60,327 bases of DNA, from NCBI GenBank assembly GCA_025350665.1, contig JANXXJ010000044.1, positions 1 to 60,327 on the forward strand. The letters run 5' to 3'. Shown here piece after piece: positions 675-59,681 of this stretch. Numbering within the stretch: the stretch's first letter is position 1; each line of letters starts with the position of its first letter. The translations under genes were made by a program, and so were the position numbers. Under the pieces are notes generated by a model. That model saw only the letters and a list, made by a program, of their open reading frames with translations. It searched no databases and was not told the DNA's origin. The DNA comes from Gemmatimonadota bacterium (GTDB lineage: Bacteria; Gemmatimonadota; Gemmatimonadetes; Gemmatimonadales; GWC2-71-9).

Positions 675-689
675 GGCAGACTCGTTTCG

Positions 690-2606
690 TTAGGCGACGG
701 CGCCGGCCGTGGCCCGCACCGGTTCGATCCGGACCGCGCAGGCCTTGAACTCGGCCGTGCCGGATTTGGGATCAGTGGCGTCGATGGTGAGGACGTTGGT
801 CCGAACCTGATCCTGATAGTGGAAGGTCATGAACACCAGGCCGGCCCGGAGGTTCCGGTCGAGCCGGACCGGCGCCACCACGGTTCCCCGACGCGAGGTG
901 ACCTGAACCAGATCACCGTCCCCCACGCCGAGACGAGCCCCGTCCTCTGGGGACATATCGCAGGTTTCCCCGCGGGTGAGCGGCGAGGTGAAGCCGCCGG
1001 TCTGGACTCCGGTGTTGTAGGCGTCGAGGCGCCGGCCGGTCGTGAGCTGGAACGGATACTCGGCGTCGGGTCGTTCGACCGGCGGATCGTGCTCCACGAC
1101 GCTGAACGGCGCTGGGGGCCCTACGCGGGGCTCCGCCCAGAGCCTGGCGTGGAGGAATTCCTCGCCCGGATGGGACTCGTCGTAGCACGGCCAATGGAGG
1201 CCCCCATGCTGTTCGAGCCTGGCGTAACTCATCCCGGCCACCATCGGCGCCAGCGAACGGACCTCGTTCCAGACGTCTTCGGCCGAGGGGTTGCCCCAGT
1301 CGCGTCCCATCCGTCGGGCGATTTCACCGATGATCCACCGGTCGTCCCGGGCGTCGCCGGGCGGCTCGAGCGCTTGGCGGACCCGCTGGACCCGGCGCTC
1401 GCTGTTCGTGACGGTGCCTTCCGACTCGCACCAACTCGACGAGGCCGGCAGGACGACCGACGCCAGTTCGGCGGTCCGGGTGAGGAGGATGTCCTGCACC
1501 ACCAGGTGATCGAGCCCGGTGAGGAGCCGCTCGGTCCGGTGCTGGTCGGCCTCCGACTGGGCCGGGTTCTCACCGATCACGTAGACGGCCCGGACCTCGC
1601 CGTGCTCCATGCCGTGAAACATCTCGGTGAGGTTCCGGCCGTATTCGGGTTTGAGGGGCACGCCCCAGGCCTGCTCGAACTTGTGCCGCACCGCTTCGTC
1701 CCGGGTCCAGTCCTGGAAACCGGCGAGGCGGTTGGGAATGGCGCCCATGTCTCCGCCGCCCTGGACGTTGTTCTGGCCCCGGAGCGGATTGAGTCCCGAC
1801 CCCCAGCGGCCCACGTGGCCGGTGAGGAGGGCCAGATTGATCAGGGAAAGAACGTTGTCGACCGCGTTGTGGTGCTCGGTGATGCCTAACGTCCAGCAGA
1901 TGACGGCCCGGTCGGCCCGGGCGAGCGCCAGCGCGGCGCGTTCGATGACGTCGGCGGGGACACCGGTTTCCTTCTCGGCGTACGCCAGCGTATAGCGCTC
2001 GACGGCCGCGGCATAGGCGGCATACCCGCTGGTGGCGCGGTCAATGAAGGCCCGGTTGACCAGCCCGGCGTGGATGATGACCCGCGCCATGGCGTTCGCC
2101 AGGGCGATGTCGGTGCCGACGTTCAAGCCGAGCCAGGCCTCGGCCCACTGGGCGGAGGCGGTGCGCCGGGGGTCCATCACGAACAGCCGGGCGCCGCGAT
2201 GGATCGCCTTGAGGACGTGATGGAAAAAGATCGGATGGTTTTCCCGGGCGTTCGCTCCCCAGAGGAAGACCACGTCGGTCTCTTCCACTTCCCGGTAGGA
2301 GCTGGTGCCCCCGCCCGCGCCGAACACTGTCGCCAGACCGACGACGCTAGGAGCGTGTCACGTCCGGTTGCAGCTGTCGATGTTGTGGGTCCCGAAGGCC
2401 ACCCGGGTGAGCTTCGAGGCCAGGAAATTCATCTCATTGCTGGCCTTCGAGCAGCTCATGGTGGCGAGGGCGTCGGGACCGTGGGCCGCCTTGGTCCGCC
2501 TGAACCCATCGGCCGCGCGATCGAGGGCTTCGTCCCAGGACGCGGGCCGGAGCACCCCGTTGTCACGAACCAGAGGCTGGGTCAGGCGGGTAAGCGGTTT
2601 GGCCAT
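690..2606 (-). CDS. fdhF: Selenocysteine-containing Mo/W-bisPGD formate dehydrogenase catalytic subunit (about 638 aa, Sec at UGA 2358-2360)
   Basis: ORFs 2358..2621 and 690..2327 are in the same frame and separated by one TGA in NIDSCNRT-U-HAPSV, the Cys/Sec-His active site. Also has PLRGQNNVQG, ESEGTVTNSERRVQ and the C-terminal molydop-binding motif (LTTGR...AEFKACAV). ATG at 2606. Confidence 0.92.
2325..2357 (-). promoter_or_regulatory. Bacterial SECIS element
   Basis: mRNA after UGA reads CACGCUCCUAGC-GUCGUC-GGUCU-GGCGAC-AGUG: a 6-bp stem 12 nt downstream of UGA with a GGUCU loop, like the E. coli fdhF SECIS. Confidence 0.85.
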
Positions 2607-2692
2607 AGGTACTCCTTGCACGGGATTTCGAGCGACACCTGCCCCCGGAAAATGCCGGTCAGTCGGGGGCGGGGCAAGGCGACCGCCCGGGA

Positions 2693-3916: not shown

Positions 3917-3942
3917 CGATCCCCCCTGGGAGAAGCCCGGCG

Positions 3943-6409: not shown

Positions 6410-6461
6410 CGATCCTCCGTTTGAATCATCAGATGTTTCCGCCCCAGCGGCGGCGGTGCCC

Positions 6462-8836: not shown

Positions 8837-8870
8837 CCGCCCGTATCCGCCTGTTCCTGGGGCCGTCTGC

Positions 8871-9605
8871 CTAACGGCCAGCCCGTTCGCCGACATGAAC
8901 CGCACAGATTCCGCCGAGCAGCAACCGGTAGCGCACCGCCGCGAACCCCGCCCGTTCCATTTTCGCCTTGAGCAGGTCCGGCGACGGAAACGCCAGAACC
9001 GACTCCGGCAAATAGGTGTAGGCATCCCGGTGCTTCGAGACCAGGCGGCCGACCAGCGGGAGCAGCCGTCGAAAATAGAAGAAATAGAGGCCGCGCATCG
9101 GCTGCCAGGTCGGCGTCGTGAATTCGAGTACCACGAGCCGGGCGCCGGGCTTGAGCACCCGGGCGGCCTCGGCCAGTCCCCGGTCGAGATCCATCAGGTT
9201 CCGGACCCCGAAGCCCACGGTGGCCCCGTCAAAAAAGGCCGAAGCAAAGGGCAGGTCGAGCGCATCGGCGGCGACCGGCACGACCGCCTTGGACTTCCCC
9301 CGCCCGAGTTCGAGCATCGGCTTCACGAAATCGGCCCCGATGACGCGCCCTTTGAACCCGGGATCGTTGCCAAGGGTCGCGGCGAGGTCGAGCGTTCCGG
9401 CGCACAGGTCGAGGTAGGTGCCGGCCGAATTTCGTTCCCAGCCGAGTGCCTTGACCGCATCCCGCCGCCAGCGCCGGTCGATGTTGAGGCTCAACACGTG
9501 GTTCAGGAGATCGTAGCGCGGTGCGATCGCCGTGAACATGCCCCGGACGTAGGCCCGTTTTTCGGGACCGCCCGGCAGGCTTAAGTCTTTGTCGGTGGCG
9601 ATCAT
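8871..9605 (-). CDS. menG: Demethylmenaquinone methyltransferase (UbiE/MenG)
   Basis: MFTAIAPRYDLLNHVLS, LDLCAGTLD, FGVRN, AYTYLPES. Confidence 0.92.
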   Translation of the reverse strand: MIATDKDLSLPGGPEKRAYVRGMFTAIAPRYDLLNHVLSLNIDRRWRRDAVKALGWERNSAGTYLDLCAGTLDLAATLGNDPGFKGRVIGADFVKPMLELGRGKSKAVVPVAADALDLPFASAFFDGATVGFGVRNLMDLDRGLAEAARVLKPGARLVVLEFTTPTWQPMRGLYFFYFRRLLPLVGRLVSKHRDAYTYLPESVLAFPSPDLLKAKMERAGFAAVRYRLLLGGICAVHVGERAGR

Positions 9606-10703: not shown

Positions 10704-12596
10704 TCACCCGCCGGCAGCAATTTTTTCGAGCGCCTCCCACCGTGCCGTCGCGGCGACAAGTCCGGCGTCGATCGTAGCCAGACGAGCCTTCGCCGCTCCC
10801 ACCGCCGCACCGTCACGCAACACCGCCGGGTCGGCGAGAGACCGGAACACCTCGTCCCGCTCCTTCTCCATCGCCTCGATCCGGTCGGGCAGCCCTTCGA
10901 GCTCCCGGGTCTCCTTGAACGACAGCCCCTTCTTCTTTCGCGCGGCCCCGTCGGACTGATCGGCCTTCTTCGCCGGCGGCCTGGCCGGTGCGGTCGCCGC
11001 CTTCGTGGTTTGACGAACCCAGTCCTGGTAGCCGCCGGCGTATTCACCGATCCGGCCCCCTCCCTCCATCACCAGCGTGCTGGTCACCACGTTGTCGAGA
11101 AAGGCCCGATCGTGGCTCACGACCAGCAACGTGCCCGAATACTCGATCAGGAGCTCCTCGAGGAGATCGAGGGTTTCGATGTCGAGATCGTTGGTCGGCT
11201 CGTCGAGCGCCAGGAGATTGAAGGATCGGGTGAACAGTCGGGCCAGGAGCAGCCGATTCCGCTCGCCGCCGGACAGGGTGCGGACCGGCGTCCGGGACCG
11301 TTCGGGAGAGAACAGAAAATCCTGGAGATAGCCCAGAACGTGACGGCGATTGGGGCCGATGTCGACGTGATCGGCGCCGCCTGCAATGCTGTTAAACACG
11401 CTCTGATCGGGGTCGAGCTGCTCCCGGAGCTGATCGAAGTAGGCGATCTCCAAACCGGTGCCATGACGGATCACCCCGGTATCGGGAGGCAGTTCCCCCA
11501 ACAGCAGCCGGAGCAACGTGGTCTTGCCTGACCCGTTGGGGCCGATCAGGCCGACCCGGTCGCCCCGCGCGATTGTGGTGGTAAGGCCTTTGACGATCGG
11601 CCGGTCGCCGTGGGAGAAACCCAGGTTCTCGGTTTCGATCACCAGCCGGCCCGAGCGTTCCGCCTCCTGGGCCTGCATCCGAACCGTGCCAACCCGGTCG
11701 CGGCGGGCCCGCCGTTCGAGGCGGAGGGCCTCGAGGGCCCGGACCCGGCCCTCGTTGCGGGTTCGCCGCGCCTTGATGCCGGTCCGGATCCAGACCTCCT
11801 CCCGGGCCAGCTTCTTGTCGAACAGCGCCCATTCCCGCTCCTCATTGGCGAGCGAGGCTTCCTTCCGCTCGAGGAAGGTGTCGTAGTTCGCCGCCCAGTC
11901 GGTCAGGCGGCCACGATCGAGTTCGATGACGCGGGTGGCGAGGCGCCGCAGGAAGGCCCGATCGTGGGTGACGAACAGCAGGGTGATACCGCGCTCGATC
12001 AGATAGCCCTCCATCCACTCGATCGCCTCGACGTCGAGATGGTTGGTGGGCTCGTCGAGCAGGAGCACGTCGGGCTCGCGGATCAGGGCCCGGGCCAGCA
12101 GGGTCTGCCGGCGCCGGCCGCCCGACGCCGCGAGGAACTCGGCATCGGGATCGAGTCCCAGGTGGGACAGCACGGTTTCGACCCGGGTCTGGAGCTGCCA
12201 GGCCCCGCTGGCGTCGAGTTGATGATGGAGCCGGTCCATGTCGGCCAGCGCCTGGTCTCCGCCGCCGTGGCCGACCCGGATCGTGGCTTCGTGATAGCGG
12301 GCCAGCAGGGTGCCGGCCTCGCCGAGCCCCCCGGCGGCCACGTCGAAGATCGTGCCCACGAGGTCGAGCGGAATATCCTGCTCCAGGCGGGACACCTGGA
12401 GCCGGCTCTGCCGGACCACCAGCCCCGAGTCGGGCTCGATGGTGCCGTCCATCAGCTTCATGAGCGTGCTCTTCCCCGCCCCGTTCCGCCCCAGCAGCGC
12501 GACCCGCTCGCCCCGATCCAGGGAGAAGGTTGCCCGGTCGAGGATCGGCGGACCGCCGAACGCCACGGTCACTTCCTGCATGCCTAACAATGCCAC
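10704..12596 (-). CDS. uup: ABC-F family ATPase (Uup-like)
   Basis: Two ABC cassettes (GRNGAGKST, GPNGSGKTT; LDEPTN twice), linker GIKARRTRNEGRVRAL, C-terminal coiled coil, no TM segments. Confidence 0.9.
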   Translation of the reverse strand: MALLGMQEVTVAFGGPPILDRATFSLDRGERVALLGRNGAGKSTLMKLMDGTIEPDSGLVVRQSRLQVSRLEQDIPLDLVGTIFDVAAGGLGEAGTLLARYHEATIRVGHGGGDQALADMDRLHHQLDASGAWQLQTRVETVLSHLGLDPDAEFLAASGGRRRQTLLARALIREPDVLLLDEPTNHLDVEAIEWMEGYLIERGITLLFVTHDRAFLRRLATRVIELDRGRLTDWAANYDTFLERKEASLANEEREWALFDKKLAREEVWIRTGIKARRTRNEGRVRALEALRLERRARRDRVGTVRMQAQEAERSGRLVIETENLGFSHGDRPIVKGLTTTIARGDRVGLIGPNGSGKTTLLRLLLGELPPDTGVIRHGTGLEIAYFDQLREQLDPDQSVFNSIAGGADHVDIGPNRRHVLGYLQDFLFSPERSRTPVRTLSGGERNRLLLARLFTRSFNLLALDEPTNDLDIETLDLLEELLIEYSGTLLVVSHDRAFLDNVVTSTLVMEGGGRIGEYAGGYQDWVRQTTKAATAPARPPAKKADQSDGAARKKKGLSFKETRELEGLPDRIEAMEKERDEVFRSLADPAVLRDGAAVGAAKARLATIDAGLVAATARWEALEKIAAGG

Positions 12597-16167: not shown

Positions 16168-17703
16168 TCAGACCGGGTCGTGCTGCCCGGCCACAATCAT
16201 CGTTTCGCTCTGCCGGCGGGCTTCGACCAGCCGGCGGCGGTCCTCGTCATCGGAGCAGCCGCCCAACAGCGCGCCGAGTTCCTCGTCATACAACCGGGTC
16301 AGAAACTCGGGAGTGTGCGGCACCGGGTGTCCAGACTCGTCAGCCACCTCCACTCGGTCCCGATGCTGAACCCGCTGCGCCAGCATCAGCCGGTAGATCC
16401 GGTCGGTCGCAAGGTCTTCCATGTAACCCTCGATCAGGCTGGCCCCCCGACCCGCCAGGACCCCGGCCCGGTATTGAATCGTGACCCGGGCGGCAGCCCG
16501 CGATCCCGCCACCGTATGGCGGCCGACGCCGGCCGGACCCGGCCGGAGGTCGGGATACCGCGCGATGCCCTCGGGACGAGTCATCCCCTGGTTCGGTATC
16601 GGGAACTGGGCCACCGCCACGGCATTCTGGTCCGGGTGTCCAGTCCAGGCACCGTCCATCAGCGCGTTCGCCTCATTCCGCTTGTCGGTTTCCAGCACCG
16701 TCATCGCCCGGGCGTTGAGCTCGGGATCGGTTCGGCTCGGAAAGAGGGCCGTCATTCCGCCGATCGCCAGCGCGCCTCGGCGGTGGCAGATCTCGGGCAG
16801 GAGCACCCGCAGCCGTTGGAAGAACGGAACGTCGTGGGGGATGGTATTGCGATCGGGCAACACCCACGCGGCGTCGGGAAGGTTGAAGTGGATGAGACTC
16901 GCCAGGTAGTCCCAACGACCGAGGTTGAGTCCGAGGACGTGGTCGCGCAGATGGTAGAGGAATTCCTCCATCTGATAGGCCATCGGGTGCGACTCGACCA
17001 GCGCCATGCACTTGATCGCGTCGGCCGGAAGCCCGCGGTCCGCGGCCAGGCGGCGGAACACGTCCCGCCACCACAGCGCCTCCTCCGCCGACTCCGATTT
17101 CGGGATATAGATCGCGATCGGATGGCGGAGGCGGCCCGGATCCACCTGGTGGACCAGGAGGGCCAGGTCGAACAGCGAGGCCGAGGTCGTCTCTTCCGGC
17201 ACGATCCCGGTCTGGCCGAGGTGCAACCCCCGCACCCGGACCCAGACAACCACGCCGCTCGGCTTGATCCCCACCTCCCGGCCGCGGTTCTGGTCGGCAT
17301 AGGCGAGGGTACCGTGGAGAGCGCCGACCGCATTGGCATGACCGCGGACCGTGTTGTCCCAGCCGTTGGCCATCGAGTCTTCCAGATCAATCATCACGCC
17401 GGGCGCGCCGGAGTTGAGCATCTTGACCACGAGCTCGGCGTCATCGGCCGGGCCGGTCATCTGGTTTCGCTGGTCGGCACACCAGTCCGGGAGGCGGATG
17501 GCCCAATCGCCGGCGGTGGCCTCGGACGGCGCCAGGTGGTCAGGCCGGGTGCCACGGTGGGACTGTTCGAGCACCCGGGCCCGGACGGCGACCAGGGCCC
17601 GTTGCCGCGGAGCAAAGGCCCGGTGCAGATCGAGATACCGGTCGAAGAAGCCGGGCGGAAGATCCCGGCGCGGGTCGAATCCGGCGGGGGGACGGTTAGG
17701 CAT
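16168..17703 (-). CDS. aceB: Malate synthase (A-type, compact form)
   Basis: [38 protein letters not shown]; directly upstream of aceA. Confidence 0.9.
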
Positions 17704-26093: not shown

Positions 26094-27521
26094 CTAGAGC
26101 AGAATGCCGGCGATGGCCGCCGACATGAAATTGGCCAGCGTCCCGGCCAGCATCGCCCGGAAGCCAAGCCGGGCGAGATCGCCCTTGCGAGTCGGCGCGA
26201 GCGCTCCGATCCCGCCGATCTGGATCCCGACCGAGCTGATGTTGGCGAACCCGGCCAGCGCAAACGACGCAATGATGAAGGACCGGGGATCCAGCGTCGC
26301 CTTCAACGGCCCCAGCTGGGAAAACGCGATGAACTCGTTCAGCACTGCCCGGGTGCCTAACAGGCTACCCACCGTCCCGGCGTCCTGCCACGGCACCCCG
26401 AGGGCCCAGGCCACCGGCCGGCCGACCCAGGCGAGGATGGTCTGGATGTTTTCAGGAAACCAGCCGACCCAGCCATGGATGCCGGCCATGGCACCGTTCA
26501 CCAGCGCCACCAGCGCGATAAACGAGATCAGCATGGCGATCACGTTCAGCATCAGGTGAAGACCCTCACCGGTCCCACGGGCGGCGGCATCCACCACGTT
26601 CACGTCGGTCTTCGGGACATCGAGTTTGACATTGCCGTAGGTCTCGGGCGTCCCGGTCTCGGGCTCGAGCAGCTTGGCCATCATGATGGTGCCCGGCGCC
26701 GTCATGATCACGGCGGTGAGCAGGTGCCGGGCTTCGACCCCGAAGGCGATATACGCCGCCATGATGGAGCCCGAGATGTGGGCCATCCCCGCGGTCATCA
26801 CGGTCATCAGTTCGGACCGGGTCATTCTGGCCAGGAACGGACGGATGGTGAGCGGCGCCTCGGTCTGCCCCATGAAGATCGACGCCGCCACGTTCAGACT
26901 TTCGGCGCCGCTCGCACCCATGGTCCGGCTCATCACCACGGCCAGGGCGCGGACGATGAGCTGCATCACGCCCAAGTAATACATGACCGCGAACAGCGCC
27001 GAGACGAAAATGATGGTGGGAAGAATCTGGAAGGCGAAGATCACGCCGAGGCTCGAACCCGACTTGCCCAGCTCACCGAACACGAACTCGGAGCCGACGT
27101 ACGAGAAATGGAGCACCGATGTCACGAAATTGCCGAGGCGCCGGAACAGTTCCTGGCCGAAGGGGACCCGGAGCACGAAGATCGCGAAGGTCAGCTGGAG
27201 CCCGACGCCCCACCCGACAACCTTCCATTTGATCGCCCCGCGATTGCTCGAAAGGGCATACCCGACCAGAATGATCAGCACCATGCCGATTACGCCGGTG
27301 AGTCGGGTCGTGAGCGGAATCACCGGCTGGGGCGCGGCCGGCGGGACGACCGGCGCCGCCGACACGGCGGGAGGGGTCCGGCCGGAGGCCTGGGCCACCA
27401 ACGCCCCCACCTGGCGGCCGGTGGCCCCCGGCAGCGCCCAGGACGCGACCACTCCCACGATCACCAGCACCGCGGCGAGCAGCCAACCGCGGGCCCAACG
27501 CGCCTTGTCAGAGGATGCCAT
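26094..27521 (-). CDS. nupC: Concentrative nucleoside transporter (CNT/NupC family)
   Basis: FAFQILPTIIF, IFMGQTEAPL, NEFIAF, GFANISSVGIQIGG; GGAG RBS before ATG 27521. Confidence 0.93.
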   Translation of the reverse strand: MASSDKARWARGWLLAAVLVIVGVVASWALPGATGRQVGALVAQASGRTPPAVSAAPVVPPAAPQPVIPLTTRLTGVIGMVLIILVGYALSSNRGAIKWKVVGWGVGLQLTFAIFVLRVPFGQELFRRLGNFVTSVLHFSYVGSEFVFGELGKSGSSLGVIFAFQILPTIIFVSALFAVMYYLGVMQLIVRALAVVMSRTMGASGAESLNVAASIFMGQTEAPLTIRPFLARMTRSELMTVMTAGMAHISGSIMAAYIAFGVEARHLLTAVIMTAPGTIMMAKLLEPETGTPETYGNVKLDVPKTDVNVVDAAARGTGEGLHLMLNVIAMLISFIALVALVNGAMAGIHGWVGWFPENIQTILAWVGRPVAWALGVPWQDAGTVGSLLGTRAVLNEFIAFSQLGPLKATLDPRSFIIASFALAGFANISSVGIQIGGIGALAPTRKGDLARLGFRAMLAGTLANFMSAAIAGILL

Positions 27522-35121: not shown

Positions 35122-36237
35122 CTACTGATTGATGATCGGGAGCGACATCGAGCGGGCGCCCGCCTCGCGCACCACGGCCCTGGTCATGGCGCCTAACGCC
35201 ACACCCGCGGGACTGTCCGGCGCCGACAGCACCACCGGGAGCCCCTGATCCGCCTGCTCCGCCAGACCGGGCTGGAGCGGAATCTGGCCCAGGAGCGGCA
35301 CCCCGAGTTCCGTGGCCAGGCGCTGGCCCCCGCCGGACGAGAAGAACTCGAACCGCTGGCCGGTGGCCGGATCGGTGAAGCCGGCCATGTTCTCGACCAC
35401 ACCATAGACCGGGACGTTCACTTTCTCGAACATCTTGGCGCCGCGGAGGGCATCGCCCACCGCCATTTCCTGCGGCGTCGTGACGATCACCGCCCCCGAC
35501 ACCTGGGCCGACTGGACCAGCGAGAGCTGGGCGTCCCCAGTGCCGGGGGGCATGTCCACCAGGAAGTAATCGAGTTCACCCCACTCCACGTCCCGCAGGA
35601 ACTGCTGCAGCACCTTCATGATGATCGGGCCCCGCCAGATCGCGGCGGCGTCCCGTTCCACCAAAAACCCGATCGACATGAGTTTGACCCCGTGAGCCAC
35701 GAGCGGCTGGATCCGGCCGCCGACCACGGCGGGTTTGTCGAAGATGCCGAACATCCGGGGCACGTTGGGACCGTAGATGTCGGCATCCATGATTCCGACC
35801 CGCTTGCCATCCCTCGCCAGCGCCACGGCGAGGTTGACCGCCACCGTGGACTTGCCGACCCCGCCCTTCCCCGACGAGATCGCGATCACCCGCCCCAGAT
35901 TCGAGTACTCCGCCGGGCTGGGCGGCTGGGGCATGCCCGTCGACTGCGGCATGGGCGCACCGGTTGGCGGTGCGTGGGTGGATTGGGCCGGCCCCGACGG
36001 ATCGACGACCGTGATCTTGACATCGGTGACGCCGGAGAGCGCCTTCAAGGCGGTCCGCGTCTCCCGAACCAGGGTGGCGGGGTCCGATCGTCCCAGCAGA
36101 AACGTGAAGGCGACCCGGCCGTCGCCGGCAACCTGAAGATCGCGCACCATCCCGGCCGACATCAGATCACTGTCGAGACGGGGGTTCTTGATCCGGGAGA
36201 GAACGGCGCCAACCTGGGCTTCGAGCGTGTCCGACAC
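35122..36237 (-). CDS. mrp: Mrp/ApbC/NBP35 Fe-S carrier ATPase
   Basis: SGKGGVGKST, DADIYGP, IWRGP, DMPPGTGD, VTTPQ, GVVENM. Confidence 0.93.
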   Translation of the reverse strand: MSDTLEAQVGAVLSRIKNPRLDSDLMSAGMVRDLQVAGDGRVAFTFLLGRSDPATLVRETRTALKALSGVTDVKITVVDPSGPAQSTHAPPTGAPMPQSTGMPQPPSPAEYSNLGRVIAISSGKGGVGKSTVAVNLAVALARDGKRVGIMDADIYGPNVPRMFGIFDKPAVVGGRIQPLVAHGVKLMSIGFLVERDAAAIWRGPIIMKVLQQFLRDVEWGELDYFLVDMPPGTGDAQLSLVQSAQVSGAVIVTTPQEMAVGDALRGAKMFEKVNVPVYGVVENMAGFTDPATGQRFEFFSSGGGQRLATELGVPLLGQIPLQPGLAEQADQGLPVVLSAPDSPAGVALGAMTRAVVREAGARSMSLPIINQ

Positions 36238-38076: not shown

Positions 38077-39713
38077 CCGCTCAACTCACCGGTGGTGAGG
38101 CCGTCGTCGCCGCTCTCATCGCCCAGGGAGTCGACCTGGTCTACGGCCTTCCCGGCATCCAGAACGACTGGCTCTACAACGCGTTCTTCGATGCCCGTGA
38201 CCGGATCCGGGTCCTGCATACCCGGCACGAACAGGGCGCCGCCTATATGGCGCTCGGTCACGCCCTCGCGACCGGGCAGCCCGCGGTCTACAACGTGGTG
38301 CCCGGGCCCGGATTCCTGAACAGCACCGCCGCCCTGGCCACGGCCTACGGATTGAACGCGCCAGTGCTCTGCCTGAGCGGGCAGATCCCGTCGAAGACGA
38401 TCGGCAAGGCCCAGGGCATTCTCCACGAAATCCCCGACCAGTTCGGCATTCTCCGCTCGCTTACCAAATGGGCCGCCCGAATCGAGGCCCCCGGCGACGC
38501 GTCGAGCCTGGTTGCCGAAGCCTTCCGCCAGCTCCGGTCCGGCCGGCAGCGACCCGTCGGGCTCGAGGTCCCGATGGACATTCTCGAGATGCGGGCGGCG
38601 GTTGGCGCACCGGGTTTCCCGCGCGAACCGGAATATCCCGAGCCCGACCTCGACCTCATCGCCCAGGCCGCGCGCAAGCTTGGCGCCGCGAAGCACCCGA
38701 TGATTTTCGTGGGGGGCGGCGCCATGAACGCGTCCGCCGAGATTCGTGAACTGGCCGAGCTGCTTCAGGCCCCGGTGGTGGCGTACCGCACCGGCCGAGG
38801 CGTGCTCGACAGCCGGCACCATCTGAGCCTGGTCGCCCCCGAGGCCCACCCGCTCTGGCAGGATGCCGACGTGGTCCTCGCCGTCGGGACCAACCTCAGG
38901 ATGCCGCTCCAGCAATGGGGCGTGGATGACGACCTGACCGTGATTCGCATCGAGGTCGATCCGACCGCGCACGACCGGATCCGCGCCCCCGACATCGCCA
39001 TCACCGCCCGCGCGGAAGACGCCCTGCGTCCACTGATTGACCGAGTGAACCGGGCCAGCGTGGCCCGACCGCCCCGCCACGATGAGATGCAGACCCGGAA
39101 GGCTGCGTGGAACGCCGAATGCGCCTTTCTGGCGCCCCAGCGGGCCTTCCTCGACGTCATCCGGGAGGAGCTCGGTGAGAACGGCATCTTCGTTGAGGAA
39201 CTGACCCAGGTCGGCTTCTCGGCCCGGGCGATCTATCCGGTGTATCACCCCCGCACCTATATCGGGACCGGCTATCAGGGCACGCTGGGCTTTGGCTTTC
39301 CCACAGCACTCGGCGTGAAGGTGGCACGCCCAGACGTACCGGTGATCTCAGTGTCGGGGGACGGCGGGTTCATGTTCTGCGTGCAGGAGCTCGCTACGGC
39401 AGTCCAGCACAAGATTCCGCTGGTGTCCGTCATCTTCAACAACAGCCAGTACGGCAACGTCCAGCAGATGCAGCGGCAGCTCTACGGCAACCGGGTGATC
39501 GCCACCGATCTCGTCAACCCGGATTTCGTCCGCATGGCCGAGTCGTTCGGGGCTGCGGCGTGGCGGGCCCGGGACGCCGCCGAACTCCGGTCCGCGATTC
39601 GAGCCGGCCTCGCGGCGGACGTGCCCGTGGTCATCGACGTGCCCGTGGGCGACCTCCCGGACGTGGACCGGTTCCGGAAACAGCCTCGACTCCGGGGCCG
39701 GTCGGACCGTTAG
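38073..39713 (+). CDS. Thiamine-diphosphate-dependent enzyme (ALS/POX/decarboxylase-like)
   Basis: GLPG, RHEQGAAYMA, VPGPG, QGTLGFG, GDGGFMF...NN ThDP motif; no ALS small subunit adjacent. Confidence 0.9.
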   Translation: MTAQLTGGEAVVAALIAQGVDLVYGLPGIQNDWLYNAFFDARDRIRVLHTRHEQGAAYMALGHALATGQPAVYNVVPGPGFLNSTAALATAYGLNAPVLCLSGQIPSKTIGKAQGILHEIPDQFGILRSLTKWAARIEAPGDASSLVAEAFRQLRSGRQRPVGLEVPMDILEMRAAVGAPGFPREPEYPEPDLDLIAQAARKLGAAKHPMIFVGGGAMNASAEIRELAELLQAPVVAYRTGRGVLDSRHHLSLVAPEAHPLWQDADVVLAVGTNLRMPLQQWGVDDDLTVIRIEVDPTAHDRIRAPDIAITARAEDALRPLIDRVNRASVARPPRHDEMQTRKAAWNAECAFLAPQRAFLDVIREELGENGIFVEELTQVGFSARAIYPVYHPRTYIGTGYQGTLGFGFPTALGVKVARPDVPVISVSGDGGFMFCVQELATAVQHKIPLVSVIFNNSQYGNVQQMQRQLYGNRVIATDLVNPDFVRMAESFGAAAWRARDAAELRSAIRAGLAADVPVVIDVPVGDLPDVDRFRKQPRLRGRSDR

Positions 39714-39722
39714 GCGACCCGC

Positions 39723-43636: not shown

Positions 43637-44322
43637 CCCGGATGTTCGTGCCCGACCCCCGCGGTCCGATTCCGGCCACCCGGGCCGTCTACGCCGCGGC
43701 GCTCAACCGACAGGCCACGCTCGCGGCGTTAGGCGACGCGCTCAGCCGCGACCCCTACCGCGAGCCGCCGCGGGCGCCGATCCTCCACCTCAAGCCGGCC
43801 AATACCTGGATCGGCCCGGGCGACCCCATCCCCTGCCCTCGGGACGTGCCCGCGCTCCGGATGGGCGGCACGCTCGGGCTCGTCATCGGCCGGACCGCGA
43901 GCCGGGTGGCGCCGGCCGAGGCACTGGACCACGTCGGGGGCTGGCTGATCGCCAACGACGTGAGTGTGCCGTACGAGTCCCACTACCGCCCGGCGATCAA
44001 GCAGCGTTGCCGGGATGGCTTCTGTCCGATCGGCCCGGCGGCGCCGGCGGCCGCTCTCGCCGAACCGGACCGGTGCGAAGTGGTGATCGAGATCGACGGC
44101 CGGATCCGGGGCCGGGCCGACGGAAGTGGGCTGGTCCGCGGCGCGGCCCGCCTCCTGTCCGACATCTCCGCGTTCATCACGTTTGAACCGGGCGACGTCC
44201 TGCTGATTGGCGAACCGCACGACAGCCCACTCGCCGAGCCGGGGGCGACCGTCCGGATCCTGATCGACGGAATCGGGTCGGTCACCAACCCGGTCCGCTG
44301 GGAACCTGCGGGGACCCCATGA
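43633..44322 (+). CDS. hpaG: HpaG isomerase/decarboxylase N-terminal subunit (FAH family)
   Basis: VYAAALN, PYREPPRAPILHLKPANT, ANDVS, YRPAIKQRCRDGFCPIG. Confidence 0.85.
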   Translation: MTRMFVPDPRGPIPATRAVYAAALNRQATLAALGDALSRDPYREPPRAPILHLKPANTWIGPGDPIPCPRDVPALRMGGTLGLVIGRTASRVAPAEALDHVGGWLIANDVSVPYESHYRPAIKQRCRDGFCPIGPAAPAAALAEPDRCEVVIEIDGRIRGRADGSGLVRGAARLLSDISAFITFEPGDVLLIGEPHDSPLAEPGATVRILIDGIGSVTNPVRWEPAGTP

Positions 44323-47253: not shown

Positions 47254-50001
47254 CTACTCCGCCTTGAGCGCCGCGACCGGACTGATCCGCCCGGCCCGCC
47301 GGGCCGGTACCCAGGCCGCCGCGGCCGCCACACCGACCAGCAACACCGGCACCAGCAACAGCGTGAGTGGATCATACCCGCGAATCCCGAACAACAGGCT
47401 CTCGAGGAGCCGGCCCACCACAACGGCCGCCACCACGCCGACCGCCGCGCCGGCCAGCACCAACCTGAGCCCGCCCCACATCAGCAACCGCACCACCGAA
47501 TCCGGCCCCGCCCCGAGCGAGAGTCGGATGCCTACCTCGCGGCTTCGCTGCGCCACGGCGTAGCTCACCGCGCCATAGAGACCGATGCAGGCCATCACCA
47601 TTGCCAGCACGGCGAACGCCATCAGAGCGGTGGCCCCCATCTTGAGCGGATAGGCCTGGGCGCCGATGAAGCTCTGCAGAGTCCCGCTCTGCATCACGAA
47701 CGTGTCGGGATCGAACGCGATGACCGCGCGGCGCATCTCGGCCGCCACCCGCTCCGCATCTCCCGTCGTCCGAGCGACGAAGAAGTCCGGCTGCTGAGAC
47801 AATTGGGCCGGTTCGTAGATGAACGGACGCGGCTCCTCTCCGAGGCTCCGGATCTTGGCGGTCTTGACGATCCCGACGATCTCGATTTCGCGGGCACCGT
47901 TCCGATACCGCTGGCCGAGGGCGCTGCGGCCCGGGAAGAACTTCGCCGCGAACGCCTCGTTGACGATCACGGCCTGGGCCGAGTCGCTGTCCCGGAGGGT
48001 AAAGTTGCGGCCGGCCACCAGGGTGAGCCCGGCGGCAGCGATAAAGCCGGTGTCAATCGCGGCCTGATCCACCTGGTGGGACGTTCGACCCTGCGGCGGT
48101 TCAATCCCGGGAACGGTGATCTCCGAACCCTGGGTTCCCAGTGTGTTGAGATGGAGGTTGCTGATCCGGCCAACCGCGTCAACGCCGGGGATTTCGGCCA
48201 AGCGCCGGATCAGCCGGTCGACCACCCGGCCGCCAGTGGCGGAATCCCGTGGCGGGTTGGCCCACAAGAAAGCCGCCGGCTTCGCCCCGAACCCGGGATC
48301 GATGTTGCGGGCCGCGTTCAGGCTCCGAACGAAGAGACCGGCCAGTACGAGCAGCACCATCGAAACGGCCACCTGGCCGCCGACCAGCAGGTGGCGGAGC
48401 GCCCAGCGCTGACGGCCGCCACCGGTGGTCTCATCGCGGATCACCGAGGCCAGGTCCATCCGGGTGGACTGCAGGGCCGGCACGAGCCCGAAGAGGACTC
48501 CGGCGCCGACCGAGACCGCCATTGAGAATCCGAGCACCCGCCAGTCGAGCGACAGGGCCAGGTCGAGCGTCACCGGCAGCGGAATGTTGCTGCCGAGCAC
48601 GACCTTCAAGGCGAGCCGCCCGAGCACCACGCCGAGGGCTCCACCCGCAAGCGCCAGGATGACCGTCTCCACCAGCAACTGCGAAATCAGCTGACCTCGC
48701 GTGGCGCCGAGCGCCAAACGGACAGCGATCTCCTTCCGTCGATCCACGGCTCTGGCGAGCAGGAAACCGGCCAGGTTGGCGCACGCGATCACCAGCACCA
48801 ACCCCACCACGAGCATCAGCATCCCGGCCACCGGCACCAGGACTTCATCGATAGGCGGGTAAATGATGATGTCGGACTTCGGGATGACGGTCACCGCAAC
48901 GTCCTGCTGCCAGCCGCTCAGATGCTGCGACTTGAGGTCCTGGGCCACTCGGTTGATTTCGACCTGCGCCTGCTGGAACGAGACGCCGGGCTTGAGACGA
49001 ACCGTGAGAAAGGTCCCGCTGGTGCCGCGATCGAGCAGCTGATGGCTGCCTGGCTCGAGGCGGTCGATCATCATCACCGGGAGGAAGATGTCGGTTGGCA
49101 CCGCATGAAGGCGCCCGGGATAATCCGCGGCCAGCACCCCAAGGACCACGTAGCTCGACCCGTTGAACCGGACCGGACGGCCCAGGATCGCCGGGTCGGC
49201 CCCGAAGTACTTCCGCCACGCCCGTTCGCTCAGCACCACCACGGCGCCCTGCCCCGGCGCCGGCGCATCGGACGGCTGGATCAGCCGCCCGAGAATGGGC
49301 CGGAGGGCCAGGGTCTCGAAATAGTCCGCCGACACGAGCTCAGTCGTGAGCTTGACCGTCCGGCCGCTCACGTCGTAGGAGACGAACGACATCTTGGTGC
49401 TCGCGATGCCCGCGATCGAGCCGGCGAGCCGCCGGAAGTCGGCGACATCGGGCTCCGACATCACGTTGTACCGGAAGCTCCCGTCGGACCGATAGAGCTC
49501 GATCAGCTGCTCCGGGCTCCGGAGCGGGGGTTTCCGCAGAATGATGTCGTTGACCAGCGTGAACATCGCACTGTTGGCGCCGATGCCTAACGCCAGCGAC
49601 AGCACCGCGGTGACGGTGAACGCCGGCCTGGCCATCAGGCGCCGGACCGCGTACCGGGCGTCCCGGCCGAGCCTCGCCAGTCGGGAATCCCGCTCCCCGG
49701 TCCCGCCCATCGTCTCGGGCGTCACCACTCGCTTGGCCTCGCGAATCAGATCGGCCGTGCGACGCCCGTCGCCGAAGGCCTCGAGCAACTGCTCCGGCGT
49801 CCGCCCCGCCGCGAGGCCATCCTCGAAGTGAGCCACCATCTCACGGAACACCTCTTCGCGCCTTTCCTCGGCCAGGCCGGTCGCGGTCACCACTTCGGCA
49901 ATCCGCGCCGCGACGATTTGCGGCAGGCCGGCCTTCCGGCCCAGCTGCTCCACCTGGATTCGGTCCATCCGGCCGCTGAAATTCTCCTGGCGATTGGTCA
50001 T
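47254..50001 (-). CDS. MacB/FtsX-type duplicated orphan ABC permease (ADOP-like) with N-terminal extension
   Basis: LALGIGANSAMF, LVIACANLA, RRKEIAVRLALGA, REVGIRLSLGA, PARRA; no ATPase gene adjacent. Confidence 0.9.
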   Translation of the reverse strand: MTNRQENFSGRMDRIQVEQLGRKAGLPQIVAARIAEVVTATGLAEERREEVFREMVAHFEDGLAAGRTPEQLLEAFGDGRRTADLIREAKRVVTPETMGGTGERDSRLARLGRDARYAVRRLMARPAFTVTAVLSLALGIGANSAMFTLVNDIILRKPPLRSPEQLIELYRSDGSFRYNVMSEPDVADFRRLAGSIAGIASTKMSFVSYDVSGRTVKLTTELVSADYFETLALRPILGRLIQPSDAPAPGQGAVVVLSERAWRKYFGADPAILGRPVRFNGSSYVVLGVLAADYPGRLHAVPTDIFLPVMMIDRLEPGSHQLLDRGTSGTFLTVRLKPGVSFQQAQVEINRVAQDLKSQHLSGWQQDVAVTVIPKSDIIIYPPIDEVLVPVAGMLMLVVGLVLVIACANLAGFLLARAVDRRKEIAVRLALGATRGQLISQLLVETVILALAGGALGVVLGRLALKVVLGSNIPLPVTLDLALSLDWRVLGFSMAVSVGAGVLFGLVPALQSTRMDLASVIRDETTGGGRQRWALRHLLVGGQVAVSMVLLVLAGLFVRSLNAARNIDPGFGAKPAAFLWANPPRDSATGGRVVDRLIRRLAEIPGVDAVGRISNLHLNTLGTQGSEITVPGIEPPQGRTSHQVDQAAIDTGFIAAAGLTLVAGRNFTLRDSDSAQAVIVNEAFAAKFFPGRSALGQRYRNGAREIEIVGIVKTAKIRSLGEEPRPFIYEPAQLSQQPDFFVARTTGDAERVAAEMRRAVIAFDPDTFVMQSGTLQSFIGAQAYPLKMGATALMAFAVLAMVMACIGLYGAVSYAVAQRSREVGIRLSLGAGPDSVVRLLMWGGLRLVLAGAAVGVVAAVVVGRLLESLLFGIRGYDPLTLLLVPVLLVGVAAAAAWVPARRAGRISPVAALKAE

Positions 50002-50002
50002 C

Positions 50003-52860: not shown

Positions 52861-52884
52861 GGCGCCTCAATGGCGAGGCCTGCC

Positions 52885-55515
52885 TCAGTCAGTCGAAATC
52901 GCCTCGATCGGGTGGATCCGCGCGGCCTGACGACCCGGCAGCCAGCAGGCCAGCGCCGCCGTCATGATCAGGAGGAGCGCCACGCCCGCCACGGTAGCGG
53001 GATCGGTCACGCCCACGCCGTACAGGAACGCGGCCAGCCACCGGCCTTCGAGCAGGGTCAGCCCGATACCGATCCCAGTACCCGCCAGGGCATAACCGAC
53101 GCCTCGTCGCACCACCATCCCCGTGACGTCCCCCGGTGCCGCGCCTAACGCCAGGCGGACCCCGATCTCCCGCCGCCGCTGGCGGACCGTGTACGACATC
53201 AAGCCGAATACCCCCAGCGCGGCCAGCACCATCGCGGTGGCCGCGAAGGCGCTCAGCACCGCGGTCCACCGGAACGGATCGGCGAGCGAGCGGTCGACCT
53301 GCGCCCGCATCGTGGTCTCGACCACCGGGAGCTCCGGATCGAGCCCCGCCACTGCCTCCCGCAGCGCCTTGAACGTGGCGGCGGCGCCCGCCCTGGTGCG
53401 GACCACCAGATTCAGCGCTCGGGGCTGATACTGGGGCAGCGGGCTGTAGACGCCGATGGCCTCAGCCGCGAGCCCGAGGTACTTCACGTCACCCACTACG
53501 CCGACCACCGTAGTAGGCGGGCAGGTATAACAGCCACCCGACACCATCTGTTTCCCGACGGCGGACCCGCCCGGGTAAAACCGCCGCGCCCAGGCCTGGC
53601 TGACCACCACCACCGGGGGCGCGGCGGCTGAGTCGCCGACCGCCAGGGCACGTCCCGCCAGCAGCGGTACCCCCAGAGCGCGGAAGTAGCCGGGGCTCAC
53701 CGCGGACCAGGGAGCCGTCGGCTCGGCGCCGCCCTCCGGGACCGGGTGATCGATCAGGTTGAAATTGTTCTCGTCCTGGGGCTCGGCCGGCGGAAGGTTC
53801 AGCGTTTACCCCGCCGCGGCGACCCCGGGAATGACGGAAGCGCGCTGCTCCAGCAGGTTCCAGAACCTCTCCCTGGCCGGATATTCGGGATAGCGAACGA
53901 CCGGAAGTGCCACGGCGATGCTGACCGCGCCGTCCGGATCAAATCCCGGACTAACCCGCTGCAACTCGACGAAGCTCCGGAGCAGGAGCCCCGCGCCGAC
54001 CAACAGAGGCAGCGCCAGCGCAAACTCCGCAATCACGAGGGCGCTCCGGGCCGCGCTGGCCCGCCGGCCGGTCCCGACCCGGCGCGTATCCAGGCGGAGG
54101 GACCCCGCGCCCCGGCCGGCCAGGCTCGCGATCAACGCCGGCGCGCTGACAAGGAAGCCGCTCACTATCGCGACCAAGGCGGCGAAGACCAGCGACCGGC
54201 CGCCGAGGGCGACCTCGTGAAGGCGCGGCAGCCCGGTCACCCGGGTCGCGACCATTTGCAACCCGAACGCCGCGAGACCGAGGCCCACGAGGCCGGCCGC
54301 CACCGTCAGCACCAGGCTGTCGGTCACCAGCAGCCGCGCCAGCCGCGACGTCCCCGCGCCGAGGGCGGCCCGGACCGCCAGTTCCTGCTCTCGAGCCGAG
54401 GCCCGCACCAGCATCAGCGTGGCCACGTTGGCGGTGGCGACCAGGAGCACCAGCAATACCGCTCCGCCGAACAGCCAGAGCTGCCGCCCGGACTGACCGA
54501 CGATGGCGTCCCGCAACGGCACCGGCGTGAGTCGGGCGGTCTGGTCCCGGAAACCGGCGGCCCACAGCGGGAAAATCCGTTCGCTGATCCCCGCCAGGTC
54601 GCGGGTGGCGTCGGCGATCGTCAGGCCCGGCCGGAGCCGGCCGATCCCGCGAAGCCAGAACGGCCCTCGGCGCGACGGGGTGGCGAGCTTGAGCTGAAGC
54701 CAGACCTGGGCCGGCACGGCGGCCAATTCGCCCTGCCCCGGCGGCAGCACCCCAACGACGGTGTGGCTGATCCCGTCGATGGTGATCGACCGACCGAGTG
54801 CCGCCGCCGCGCCGCCTAACCGTTCCCGCGCCATGGCGTCGGTGACCACCGCAACCGCCGGGGCATCGGCGAGTTCATCCGCCGGGACCACCAACCGACC
54901 GGCCGCCGCCCGGACATCGAGCGCCCGAAAGAAGTCGGCCGTCCCCCTGCCCGCGACCATCTGTTCCGGGCGGCCAACCCCCGAGAGGGCGACCTCGCTC
55001 CAGCGCACCGCCCCGAACGCGTCGAAGGTCCGCTGCTGGTCGCGGATGGCGAGGACGTCGACGGTGGACAGCGACCACAGGTTGGTCGGTGAATTCTTCT
55101 CATAGATCCGGACCAGGCGGTCGGCCGCCGGGTAGGGCAGGTCGGCCAGCAGGACCCGGTCGGCGAGGGTGAAGACCACCGTCCCGGCGCCCAGGCCAAG
55201 GCCGAGGACCGAGATCGCCGCCAGCGCGAAGATCGGACTCGCCCGGAGGCCCCGGAGCGCGTAGCGGACGTCGGCCACGACATCCTCGAGCGGCCGAACA
55301 CCGCGGGCATCGCGCACATCCTCTTTGACCTGTTCCATCCCCCCGAACGCGAGGAGGGCCTCCCGTCGCGCCGTTGCCAAATCGGCGCCGCGGCGCACCC
55401 GCTCCGCCGTTTCCTGATCGACATGAAATCGAACTTCGTCATCGAGTTCCGACTCCTGGCGGTTTTTCCGGGCCAGCGCCTTGACCCGCTCCGACCAATC
55501 CGAGAACACACTCAC
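52885..55515 (-). pseudogene. ADOP-like ABC permease interrupted by an in-frame TAA at 53806-53808
   Basis: ORFs 53806..55665 and 52885..53700 are in frame (VAAAG*TLNLPP...WSAVSPGYF); GTG start at 55515 overlaps the PadR stop. Confidence 0.85.
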
Positions 55516-55859: not shown

Positions 55860-55862
55860 GGC

Positions 55863-55919: not shown

Positions 55920-55990
55920 CGGCGCCGATGATTGGGTGCTTGACTGGCGGCGGCCAGAGCGTAACGTCTGTCTCCCCCAAGGAGACCCCA

Positions 55991-58045: not shown

Positions 58046-58058
58046 CGGGCAACACGAC

Positions 58059-59681
58059 TCACATCCGCGGGATCGAACAGGCGAAGTTCGCCGCGTCGTC
58101 GCTGCTGCCGGTCCCCTTGTACTGCGCCGTTTTGGGATAGGCGCACAGCGGCCGCGTGATCTTGGTCTCTTTGGCCGGATCGCCGACGGGCTCTCCCGAC
58201 CGGATCCCGGAGGCGACCAACCGATCCGGCGCCACGCCCTTCTCGACCCAGCGCTCGAGGGCGGCCCGGAGGTCACGATCGGCGTCATGCTGCCCGGCCT
58301 GACTCAACTCGTTGCCGAAGGTATTCGGTCCGGCCCCGCCGCCGCAGTGGCTCATCCCTGGCACCATGAACAGGCGGTAGAAGTCGGCGACCGGTTTGCC
58401 GTTCGGCCGTTCCAGGGTCTTTTTGACGCGCTCGTAGAACTCGATCGAGCTGTGTCCGCTGATGGCGGCGTCACCCCAGCCGTGGTACTGCAGCAACTTC
58501 CCGCCCCGATCCCGGAACGGCGCCAGGTTGGGATCGTTCGAATCGAGGATCCCGCCGGTCTTAGCCAGGGCTTCGGCATAGTCCCGGTCGAGGTCAAAGT
58601 TCTTGTAGTCCCATTTGGGGTCCTGATGGACGATGGTGCCGTAGAACGACGTACCGAACCAGGCCTGGAGCGGGGGCCCCATCGGTGAGGCGCCTACCAG
58701 CCAGGGGTTCCACGTGCCCGGGAATGCTTCGGTTCCCGGCACCATGCCGGGATAGATCGGCTGACCGGACTTGGTGGTCCCGGGGCCCCGGTAGACCTTC
58801 TCGAGCGCCGCGAGCTGAGCATCCGTTAGGCAGTTGGGGCCGTCGGCGCCGGCGCAGCGAAGCGCGGCCGACCGGAAGTGGCAGCGCCGAGGATCTTCGA
58901 TCAGCCCGTCCTTGACGCCATCGATCGCGTCGCACTGGCTCACCACGGCGGCCTGGATGGCTGCCAGCTTGGTGACCGGAATCATGCTCAACGGCGTCTC
59001 GTTGAGTGCCCGCCAGTTCCAGACCGCGCCGGTGAGCAGCCCGGTCCAGTTGCTGGCCGGCGCCCCAGCCACGATTCCGTTGAAGTCCTCCGGATACCGC
59101 TCGGCCTCCATCAAGGCTTCGCGGCCGCCGTCGGAGCACCCGAAGAAGTACGAGCGACTGGCCGGCTTGCCGTAGAAGGCCTGGATGATCGCCTTGGCCT
59201 GTTCCGCCGTCTGGTGGACGGCCCGGTGTCCGAAGTCGATCAGTTTCTCCGGGTGGCCGATCGCGAAATCCGGGGTCGGGCCGGCATGTCCGTCATCGGT
59301 GGCCGCCGTCGCGTACCCACGGGCGACCCCCGCCGCAATCGTGGCGGCGATGATGGTCCCGGCGTATCCACCGTTACCCATCTGCTGGAACTTGCCGTTC
59401 CACGCCTCGGGCACCGGGAGCCAGACTTCGAACTTGATCTCCGAGTCGCCGGTCGGCCGGGCAACCCCTTCGACCCGGCAATATGATGGCAAGTCGAGCG
59501 ACGGCAGGGCGCCCTGGGGAGAGGACTCCTTGTAGGCGCCCGCGGCAACCACTGCCGCCGAGGTGATGCTCGCCTGGGACAGGGCGAGGGTCCGCAAACT
59601 CTCGCAACTCCGCTGGGCCTGAGCACGGGCAGTGAACGTTCCGACGAGTACAGCCGACAGCAGGGTCGCCCGATAGCGCAT
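58059..59681 (-). CDS. Tannase/feruloyl esterase family hydrolase, secreted
   Basis: WNGKFQQMGNGG, GCSDGGRE, YHGWGD, PGMSHCGGG, RPLCAYP. Confidence 0.93.
   Translation of the reverse strand: MRYRATLLSAVLVGTFTARAQAQRSCESLRTLALSQASITSAAVVAAGAYKESSPQGALPSLDLPSYCRVEGVARPTGDSEIKFEVWLPVPEAWNGKFQQMGNGGYAGTIIAATIAAGVARGYATAATDDGHAGPTPDFAIGHPEKLIDFGHRAVHQTAEQAKAIIQAFYGKPASRSYFFGCSDGGREALMEAERYPEDFNGIVAGAPASNWTGLLTGAVWNWRALNETPLSMIPVTKLAAIQAAVVSQCDAIDGVKDGLIEDPRRCHFRSAALRCAGADGPNCLTDAQLAALEKVYRGPGTTKSGQPIYPGMVPGTEAFPGTWNPWLVGASPMGPPLQAWFGTSFYGTIVHQDPKWDYKNFDLDRDYAEALAKTGGILDSNDPNLAPFRDRGGKLLQYHGWGDAAISGHSSIEFYERVKKTLERPNGKPVADFYRLFMVPGMSHCGGGAGPNTFGNELSQAGQHDADRDLRAALERWVEKGVAPDRLVASGIRSGEPVGDPAKETKITRPLCAYPKTAQYKGTGSSDDAANFACSIPRM

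Follow-up and report, generated by a model that had tools for sequence, protein, structure and literature searches.

A dispersed double-strand octamer in Gemmatimonadales with short-range avoidance, a local G+C halo and the letters of the integron attC core

The contig analyzed here (the window, 60,327 nt; contig C218 of the 4.59 Mb Gemmatimonadota assembly G000, 67% G+C and 94% complete) carries dispersed copies of the heptamer GTTAGGC/GCCTAAC, which belong to an octamer, CGTTAGGC. This octamer is a real genome-wide double-strand DNA word, selected or driven, and each of its copies changes how the neighboring DNA evolves. It is most plausibly explained, at about even confidence, as an uptake-sequence-like tag at the center of short tracts of exchanged DNA. 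Coordinates given for the window are those of the whole stretch.

The first-pass annotation, made from the letters of the window, had listed 13 heptamers, and all 13 were recovered with every position correct and no further copy. Dinucleotide-shuffled versions of the window yielded 2.08±1.42 heptamers (maximum 6; 0/100 shuffles with 13). The zero-order expectation of 6-7 copies in that annotation agrees with the 6.8 obtained here, and the window holds 24 TTAG or CTAA tetramers, 13 within the heptamer and 11 elsewhere, close to the 10 or so others it had noticed. Its readings of three copies overlapping stop codons (heptamers at 689, 8869 and 39709), one at a start codon as ATG CCT AAC (17695) and the remainder as coding (58825, read xGC CTA ACx) were all confirmed. 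The Leu-Gly copies written TTA GGC are coding as it had proposed, yet number eight by our gene calls and not seven (1884, 12582, 26355, 35191, 43728, 49585, 53143 and 54814). The overrepresented word, described as non-palindromic and present on both strands, is indeed so (the reverse complement of CGTTAGGC is GCCTAACG), but the heptamer is one base short of the real word, and 9 of the 13 extend to the full octamer.

Genes of G000 were called with a self-trained model (4092 genes, 91% coding; rRNA is absent from the assembly), so that frame counts carry the errors of that model. The genome contains 863 GTTAGGC and 726 CGTTAGGC, the latter ranking first of all octamers at 24.5 times its order-3 Markov expectation. 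In coding DNA the excess stands under codon shuffling, with 589 octamers against 22.4±4.0 in 15 synonymous shuffles (about 26x) and 669 heptamers against 56.7±8.5; a stricter null that keeps codon choice for each following amino acid, and itself absorbs part of the signal, still gives 74.5 octamers. The word occurs 445 times in the frame xCG TTA GGC (5.1 expected), 122 times as xxG CCT AAC G (12.0 expected) and 17 times as xGC CTA ACG (1.9 expected), with 85 other copies at stops as CGT TAG GC and 39 intergenic. TTA is used in 443/1353 xCG-Leu-GGC contexts, against 6/6909 xCG-Leu contexts followed by a G and then any base except G, and 498 of the 846 TTA codons of the genome lie in G-TTA-GGC, the enrichment that had been suspected from the window. 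In G054, the richest carrier, which belongs to another family (284 kb of 3.6 Mb analyzed), the four frames are realized in 113/201, 48/69, 39/67 and 16/103 contexts, and the tripeptides ALG, PND and PNG exceed expectation 1.7x, 3.3x and 3.7x while the reversed tripeptides stay near 1. Three motif-poor genomes realize 0/198 Leu-frame contexts. Use of all four frames and the tripeptide excess in G054, together with this absence in motif-poor genomes, therefore indicate a signal at the DNA level.

The spelling of the word is narrow. Among its variants a clear excess is confined to those of the ends, TGTTAGGC and CGTTAGGT (5.9x and 9.7x), most inner base changes lie at or below expectation in G000 (highest 1.5x), and the flanks show a weak preference at the adjacent bases with no extended consensus. 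A one-step mutational ratchet was rejected, neighbor words not being depleted (CGTTGGGC, observed/expected 1.03). Realization rises from 15% in the lowest decile of third-codon-position G+C (GC3) to 45% in the highest in G000, and word density climbs with regional GC3 (rho 0.55). No report of the word as a dispersed motif was found in the open literature (subscription papers and bioRxiv supplements were outside the scope); GCCTAAC appears in the available portion of one integron paper (PMC12901181).

Copies are also retained between species. G000 and G002 align over 370 kb at 88% identity (550 kb out of some 5.0 Mb went into the comparison), and 38/40 sense Leu-frame sites are kept in G002, against 33-45% for control words (p=1.4e-9), although one small control-word class is kept 8/10. 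One methyltransferase codon carries the word in 9/17 congeners. This retention beyond controls, the codon-aware excess, the occurrence on both strands, the use of all four open frames in G054 and the non-random spacing support the first-pass proposal of a selected genome-wide DNA signal.

The spacing takes the form of short-range avoidance. There are 20 pairs of copies less than 500 bp apart, whereas permuting the labels among coding opportunities gives 51.4±6.7 genome-wide and 42.3±5.1 within contigs (0/500 permutations as low). The deficit is present for direct, convergent and divergent orientations, whereas control words lack it, and it spans gene borders (7/47 realized), on which ground a one-copy-per-gene rule was rejected. 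In G054, where the word is five times denser, the deficit is confined to distances below 150 bp (32 vs 76 heptamer pairs). Pairs at 750-1000 bp are in surplus in G000 (40 vs 25.8±4.6 genome-wide and 32.8±4.0 within contig).

Around each copy lies a halo of raised G+C, measured at fourfold sites after removal of gene, codon-family and position effects. In G000 it amounts to +1.95±0.28, +0.82, +0.71, +0.62, +0.31, +0.19 and -0.06 points in successive bins from 12 to 500 bp (the first being 12-50 bp) and reaches about zero at 400 bp. It is missing at 1111 unrealized contexts, at 850 control words and at rare codons outside the word in G000, and no halo was found at 263 unrealized contexts in motif-poor genomes. 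It occurs also at twofold codons and around sense and antisense copies alike (+2.6 points at antisense Pro-frame sites). In G054 it measures +2.88±0.44, +1.85, +0.91 and +0.20, and halo and avoidance share one scale and are both shorter in the denser genome; G002 shows it too, not independently of G000, and the other carriers pooled show a weaker one (+1.78±0.70). The halo is symmetric by word, fork or transcription direction (by fork +1.19 vs +1.11), one uneven sub-split (leading-strand word, left 1.53 vs right 0.71, SE 0.38) being treated as noise. Copies at stop codons give +2.61±0.92, a class that is uninformative because its control is raised as well (+1.65±0.73). Local protein conservation was rejected as the cause, its slope of -0.05 to 0.09 per unit identity predicting at most about 0.4 points. 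The orthologues from motif-poor genomes give -1.9±1.3 and -0.3±2.1 points, an underpowered control. At fourfold sites, divergence between G000 and G002 is 0.27 up to 200 bp from a copy and 0.30 past 500 bp; the drop near sites within genes is not significant.

These properties bear on the idea of a signal in translation or RNA, in which a rare UUA codon in a fixed context would serve bldA-like control or a pause. It would account for the 444 of 588 internal coding copies that lie in the sense Leu frame and for sense Leu sites being the best kept (38/40, vs 6/13 antisense), but the antisense frames are enriched 9-10x in G000 and 58-70% realized in G054, the halo is as strong at antisense Pro-frame sites and avoidance crosses gene borders, all of which make it highly improbable.

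Under the favored explanation, short DNA carrying CGTTAGGC would be preferentially taken up or integrated, by which the word would be spread and kept at silent positions. One copy per fragment would suffice and a second in the same tract would gain less, giving rise to avoidance, whereas positions near a copy would be co-transferred more often and could drift toward G+C through GC-biased conversion or more effective codon selection. Exchange tracts would then measure about 0.2-0.8 kb. A symmetric peak that fades within a few hundred bases and becomes narrower along with the avoidance distance fits the preferential exchange of fragments in which the word is randomly placed. The reader protein would probably be shared across the order, the lineages differing in the amount of DNA exchanged, for which reason the same word could rise and decay repeatedly. 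It is likely that the word works like an uptake sequence; of the three mechanisms named in the first-pass annotation, a role resembling that of a DNA-uptake sequence fits best.

G000 encodes an intact-looking competence set comprising ComEC, ComEA-like genes, a pilM-Q-like cluster and two minor-pilin clusters, the pilins being labeled by motif. A FimT/PilV/PilW-like cluster (G000:C196:10033-11488) adjoins a glycyl-tRNA synthetase-like gene and is found in 21/21 congeners; in this genus, as also in two motif-poor genomes, the PilV-like pilin is basic (+6 to +8). ComEA copy number was rejected as a correlate of the word: most rich congeners have a high number, yet G013 has 2, G054 has 1 and motif-poor G023 has 7. 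In the available text on Neisseria, denser uptake sequences accompany shorter conversion fragments (PMC2397512), and uptake sequences are described as leaving a proteome imprint in which their tripeptides are doubled (PMC2817400, in part). Uptake-type self words are established solely in Neisseriaceae and Pasteurellaceae according to the portion of PMC1939737 available.

Several observations count against such a tag. ComEC (73/75), ComEA-type domains (76/76) and a FimT-like pilin (51/80) are shared by motif-rich and motif-poor genomes, and neither convergence of FimT/PilV/PilW nor a lineage-specific pilin receptor was found, no shared residues being visible by eye. Neisseria uptake-sequence copies are mostly intergenic (PMC2397512, in part), and intergenic DNA is here no richer than coding DNA (0.10-0.13 vs 0.14/kb in G000; 0.57 vs 0.89 in G054), with 39/664 intergenic TTAG inside the word, about 6x baseline; close inverted pairs or terminator pairs were not found in G000. 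In that genome the Val-Arg frame C GTT AGG C is barely over the simple null (5 vs 3.4) and the tripeptide excess is near absent (ALG 1.06-1.09). Antisense Pro-Asn sites are kept 6/13 in G002, like control words and below sense sites (p=0.003); more silent exits in the Pro-Asn frame may explain part of this, but some asymmetry is left over, for which a strictly double-strand signal has no need. The word is equally dense in G002-specific DNA (28 copies in 143 kb) and in shared DNA (66 copies in 380 kb; p=0.57), the specific set also taking in gaps in the G000 assembly and genes that come from motif-rich congeners. The link of G+C and recombination in bacteria is itself contested, being strong in 1/10 species and, after control, positive in Neisseria and negative in H. 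influenzae (PMC4866539, in part). Finally, site-directed repair fits the halo equally well.

Such repair could be started by a protein that binds or methylates the word and opens a two-way patch of a few hundred bases, in which G+C->A+T mutation would be lowered and one copy per patch favored. Halo and avoidance on one common scale are consistent with it, as is the lower fourfold divergence to G002 near sites, and MutS is encoded. A candidate reader is a 973 aa protein with N6_Mtase, Eco57I and MmeI_Mtase domains (G000:C336:20342-23263), which has an NPPW motif in 103/103 aligned orthologues and adjoins a DrmD/SNF2-like helicase; GCCTAAC has an A in the second-to-last position, which we take to be typical of MmeI/BREX targets. 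However, the candidate is matched in 40/41 genomes, motif-rich or not, and its clades follow family and genus. No alignment column separates motif-rich lineages, the best (0.56, vs 0.34 for a control triple) being residue 158, far from the recognition region. The Gemmatirosa methylome comprises RGATCY, ATGCAC and CCAGN7TCA only (PMC3974934; presence of the candidate orthologue there was unchecked), the divergence drop lacks significance within genes, and a mark on one strand cannot label both daughter strands. No C5 methyltransferase was found in G000 at its 94% completeness, and N6_N4_Mtase gave one partial match. The HIP1-like methylation or repair motif named at first pass stays the main rival, weakened by a non-palindromic word and a conserved methyltransferase that does not track it, and we regard site-directed repair as unlikely but deserving of weight. 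The region itself (G000:C336:18363-23263; loci L002 and L032) holds a single-copy Type IIG/MmeI-like N6-adenine methyltransferase followed by the helicase, an SF2 protein of 660 aa, in a housekeeping setting, a pair that looks like a domesticated defense pair.

Occupancy by a chromosome-organizing or other DNA-binding protein, selected for spacing as in the cyanobacterial highly iterated palindrome HIP1, was considered as well. Excess, conservation and non-random spacing resemble those of HIP1, whose 15- to 300-fold excess is of unproven function (PMC5861425, in part), and the surplus of pairs at 750-1000 bp, the single copy in the 41 kb dnaA/parB contig and the rise of density with GC3 point the same way. 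A site of this kind alone predicts no synonymous G+C halo, however, and the spacing scale differs threefold between lineages. In G013, judged from 84 of its 568 sites, density on the dif contig is normal, copies occur as near as 3-4 kb to dif and the strand does not switch there, and on the dnaA contig 4 copies compare with about 6.6 expected. We consider this explanation improbable; the segregation or nucleoid site suggested at first pass is likewise disfavored by the lack of polarity, the lack of a switch or gap at dif and a depletion near the origin that is only mild. The dnaA/parB contig (G000:C271) has the lowest GC3 of the large contigs (0.744), and in this genus GC3 may increase with distance from the origin.

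A signal oriented to replication, such as Chi, the FtsK-orienting KOPS or a primase site, would agree with the word being a non-palindromic octamer that is met roughly once every 6 kb. Chi of E. coli is a non-palindromic octamer of similar copy number, and both Chi and KOPS are polar to replication. The strand skew that the first-pass annotation had thought worth examining is absent: 248 copies are leading and 246 lagging (strands inferred from fourfold G skew), and leading and lagging genes realize the word equally. Word strands are mixed throughout a contig of more than 0.9 Mb, the halo is symmetric to fork direction and the canonical dif lacks the word, which leaves an oriented signal very improbable. 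Identity with a dif half-site and restriction to ter or ori were rejected. A canonical dif-like site lies at G000:C233:12201-12230 and is near-identical in G006, G007 and G013.

The distribution of the word among relatives is patchy. All 21 congeners have 145-1971 copies, three other genera of the same family 24-74, and 3/8 genomes of a second family 177-561. Of 50 genomes reached via loci, four have 458-3419 CGTTAGNC and 46 have 5-199, and among 201 genomes of the phylum 11 have at least 173 copies (five of the same genus and six of family f2), the other 190 having 0-96. G050 and G245 are the same genome, and the unpublished G055, G137, G176, G231 and G256 are among the low genomes only, no claim resting on them. 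A tree of the single-copy, order-wide methyltransferase places rich lineages in at least three families with poor sisters in between. In a nested congener clade the word is largely lost, 1/10 of G000 sites being kept where the peptide permits. The idea of dialects was dropped: locus L137 of G069 has five CGTTAGCC in 14.6 kb, while the genome has just 54 CGTTAGNC, and the cluster is probably a cassette array or local repeat. Substitute overrepresented words, sought in 200 kb each of three motif-poor genomes and one low-motif congener, were limited to CACAGAG in G025 (L044-L053; 35 vs 4.4 expected), possibly a local repeat. In G054 (L168-L175) TTCCCCAAGC-like words are also overrepresented and are possibly local repeats.

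A feature additional to the first-pass account is that the word equals the R' end of the integron attC sites of these bacteria, which end in (C)GTTAGGC and begin with GCCTAAC. It conforms to the attC core GTTRRRY, 7/16 strand-reads of predicted attC hairpins beside the integrase gene intI in G000 and relatives end in CGTTAGGC or close variants, and attC ends of the relatives are mostly CGTTAGGC in motif-rich and motif-poor genomes alike. The dispersed copies are not attC sites as a rule: among 863 heptamers, 9 are at candidate places for an inverse partner core 45-150 bp upstream that would form a hairpin behind a cassette gene, about 4 of them attC-like by arrangement, and close opposed pairs of the word show no excess in G000.

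The integron integrase IntI could have left the word as its footprint or target by converting attC-core-like chromosomal sites to its best substrate. The predicted hairpins beside intI are in keeping with this, and the minor variants of rich genomes (CGTTAGTC, CGTTAGAC, CGTTATGC and GTTGGGC) resemble the known spectrum of attC core variants. IntI matches occur in 33/41 relatives. The available text of one study reports that IntI recombines with double-stranded genomic attG sites, but gives their consensus as merely GWT (bioRxiv 10.1101/2022.09.11.507474). The dispersed copies, moreover, are unpaired point substitutions in codons, and a passive footprint would be neither retained nor spaced. 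The drafts of G054, G049, G013, G029 and G037 yielded no IntI N-terminal domain, for which reason the integrase is unlikely to be the present reader; the domain is present in most motif-poor genomes, and co-occurrence of IntI with the word was rejected as a correlate. We hold a footprint of this kind to be very unlikely.

Chromosomal integrons are fed with cassettes by transformation (PMC12614218, in part). The word might equal the attC core because an uptake bias favors integron-cassette DNA, a speculation that would also explain why separate lineages share one spelling. Gemmatimonadales would then add a third uptake-sequence system, independent of the other two and tagged with the attC core, favored since every cassette carries CGTTAGGC; frequent transformation in a lineage would write the same word chromosome-wide, and the halo would record tract length and GC-biased conversion. 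This fuller version is doubtful. In G000 an integron integrase is cut by a contig end (G000:C120:7891-8362), and attC-like hairpins lie on small contigs (C317:698-763, C229:3886-3954, C222:3825-3915 and C17:106-181) beside cassette-like genes or insertion sequence (IS) elements. Two motif-poor genomes from the same family carry comEC within 5-8 kb of the integron integrase (G024:C15:2588-11340 and G124:C135:975-9985), followed in G024 by a regular cassette array. A 30-bp perfect inverted repeat bounded by GCCTAAC/GTTAGGC at the start of a called gene (G000:C171:82-174) could reflect a fold-back in the assembly or else be an attC-like hairpin.

Matched positive and negative lineages are provided by a word that seems to have risen and decayed more than once in a single order, and the halo makes two questions testable from genomes alone: whether such words are maintained by drive or by selection, and whether bacterial G+C is increased by recombination. 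Should the attC match prove causal, it would tie sequence-biased uptake to the capture of cassettes by bacteria of soil, sediment and wastewater, and if the tag is indeed the attC core, the halo would be a record of exchange-tract length in uncultured bacteria.

The window copies are listed in Table 1. The second ADOP permease (window 52885-55515, -) is a frameshifted or split gene: it is read in two frames (53806-55515 and 52885-53700), and each of these matches the family profile in part.

Table 1. Copies of the word in the window and the reading of each
Feature	Position	Strand	Context
CGTTAGGC octamer	688..695	+	complement GCC TAA CG, stop of formate dehydrogenase alpha-like gene (690-2327, -)
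CGTTAGGC octamer	1884..1891	-	Leu-Gly TTA GGC in formate dehydrogenase alpha-like gene
CGTTAGGC octamer	8869..8876	-	CGT TAG GC, stop of gene 8871-9605 (-)
GTTAGGC heptamer, preceding T	12582..12588	-	Leu-Gly, codons 4-5, Uup-like ABC-F ATPase
GTTAGGC heptamer, preceding G	17695..17701	+	complement ATG CCT AAC, start of malate synthase-like gene
GTTAGGC heptamer, preceding T	26355..26361	-	Leu-Gly, NupC/NupG nucleoside transporter
CGTTAGGC octamer	35191..35198	-	Leu-Gly, Mrp/ApbC-like Fe-S carrier gene
CGTTAGGC octamer	39708..39715	+	CGT TAG GC, stop of thiamine pyrophosphate (TPP)-binding enzyme gene (38073-39713)
CGTTAGGC octamer	43727..43734	+	Leu-Gly, HpaG/FAH-family gene
CGTTAGGC octamer	49585..49592	-	Leu-Gly, ADOP-family permease
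CGTTAGGC octamer	53143..53150	-	Leu-Gly, second ADOP permease, 3' part
GTTAGGC heptamer, preceding G	54814..54820	-	Leu-Gly, second ADOP permease, 5' part
CGTTAGGC octamer	58824..58831	+	complement xGC CTA ACG in gene 58059-59681 (-)

Among known systems, the DNA uptake sequences (DUS) of Neisseriaceae and the uptake signal sequences (USS) of Pasteurellaceae share with CGTTAGGC a short non-palindromic word on both strands that is substituted into genes and conserved beyond codon need, a tripeptide imprint at high density (G054), a density of up to ~1/kb that is higher where the local scale is shorter, and encoded competence genes. In contrast to them, CGTTAGGC occurs in another phylum, has 8 bases and no extended flanking consensus, uses the rarest codons, lacks terminator pairs and an intergenic excess, is not depleted in strain-specific DNA in the G002 comparison, and is found in several scattered lineages with one spelling, no dialects and the letters of the attC core. 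HIP1 (GCGATCGC, cyanobacteria) is likewise an octamer with more than 15-fold excess, conserved, non-randomly spaced and patchy among taxa, but CGTTAGGC is no palindrome, has no tracking methyltransferase and shows short-range avoidance and a G+C halo where HIP1 shows long-range periodicity (periodicity was not examined for CGTTAGGC). Chi (GCTGGTGG, E. coli) is a non-palindromic octamer of similar copy number with coding-frame bias and, as is likely here, a link to recombination, from which CGTTAGGC differs by the lack of replication orientation and by its two-sided local effect. With the attC core (R' box, GTTRRRY) the word shares identical letters, whereas its copies are single, unpaired, mostly in housekeeping genes and abundant where no integrase was found.

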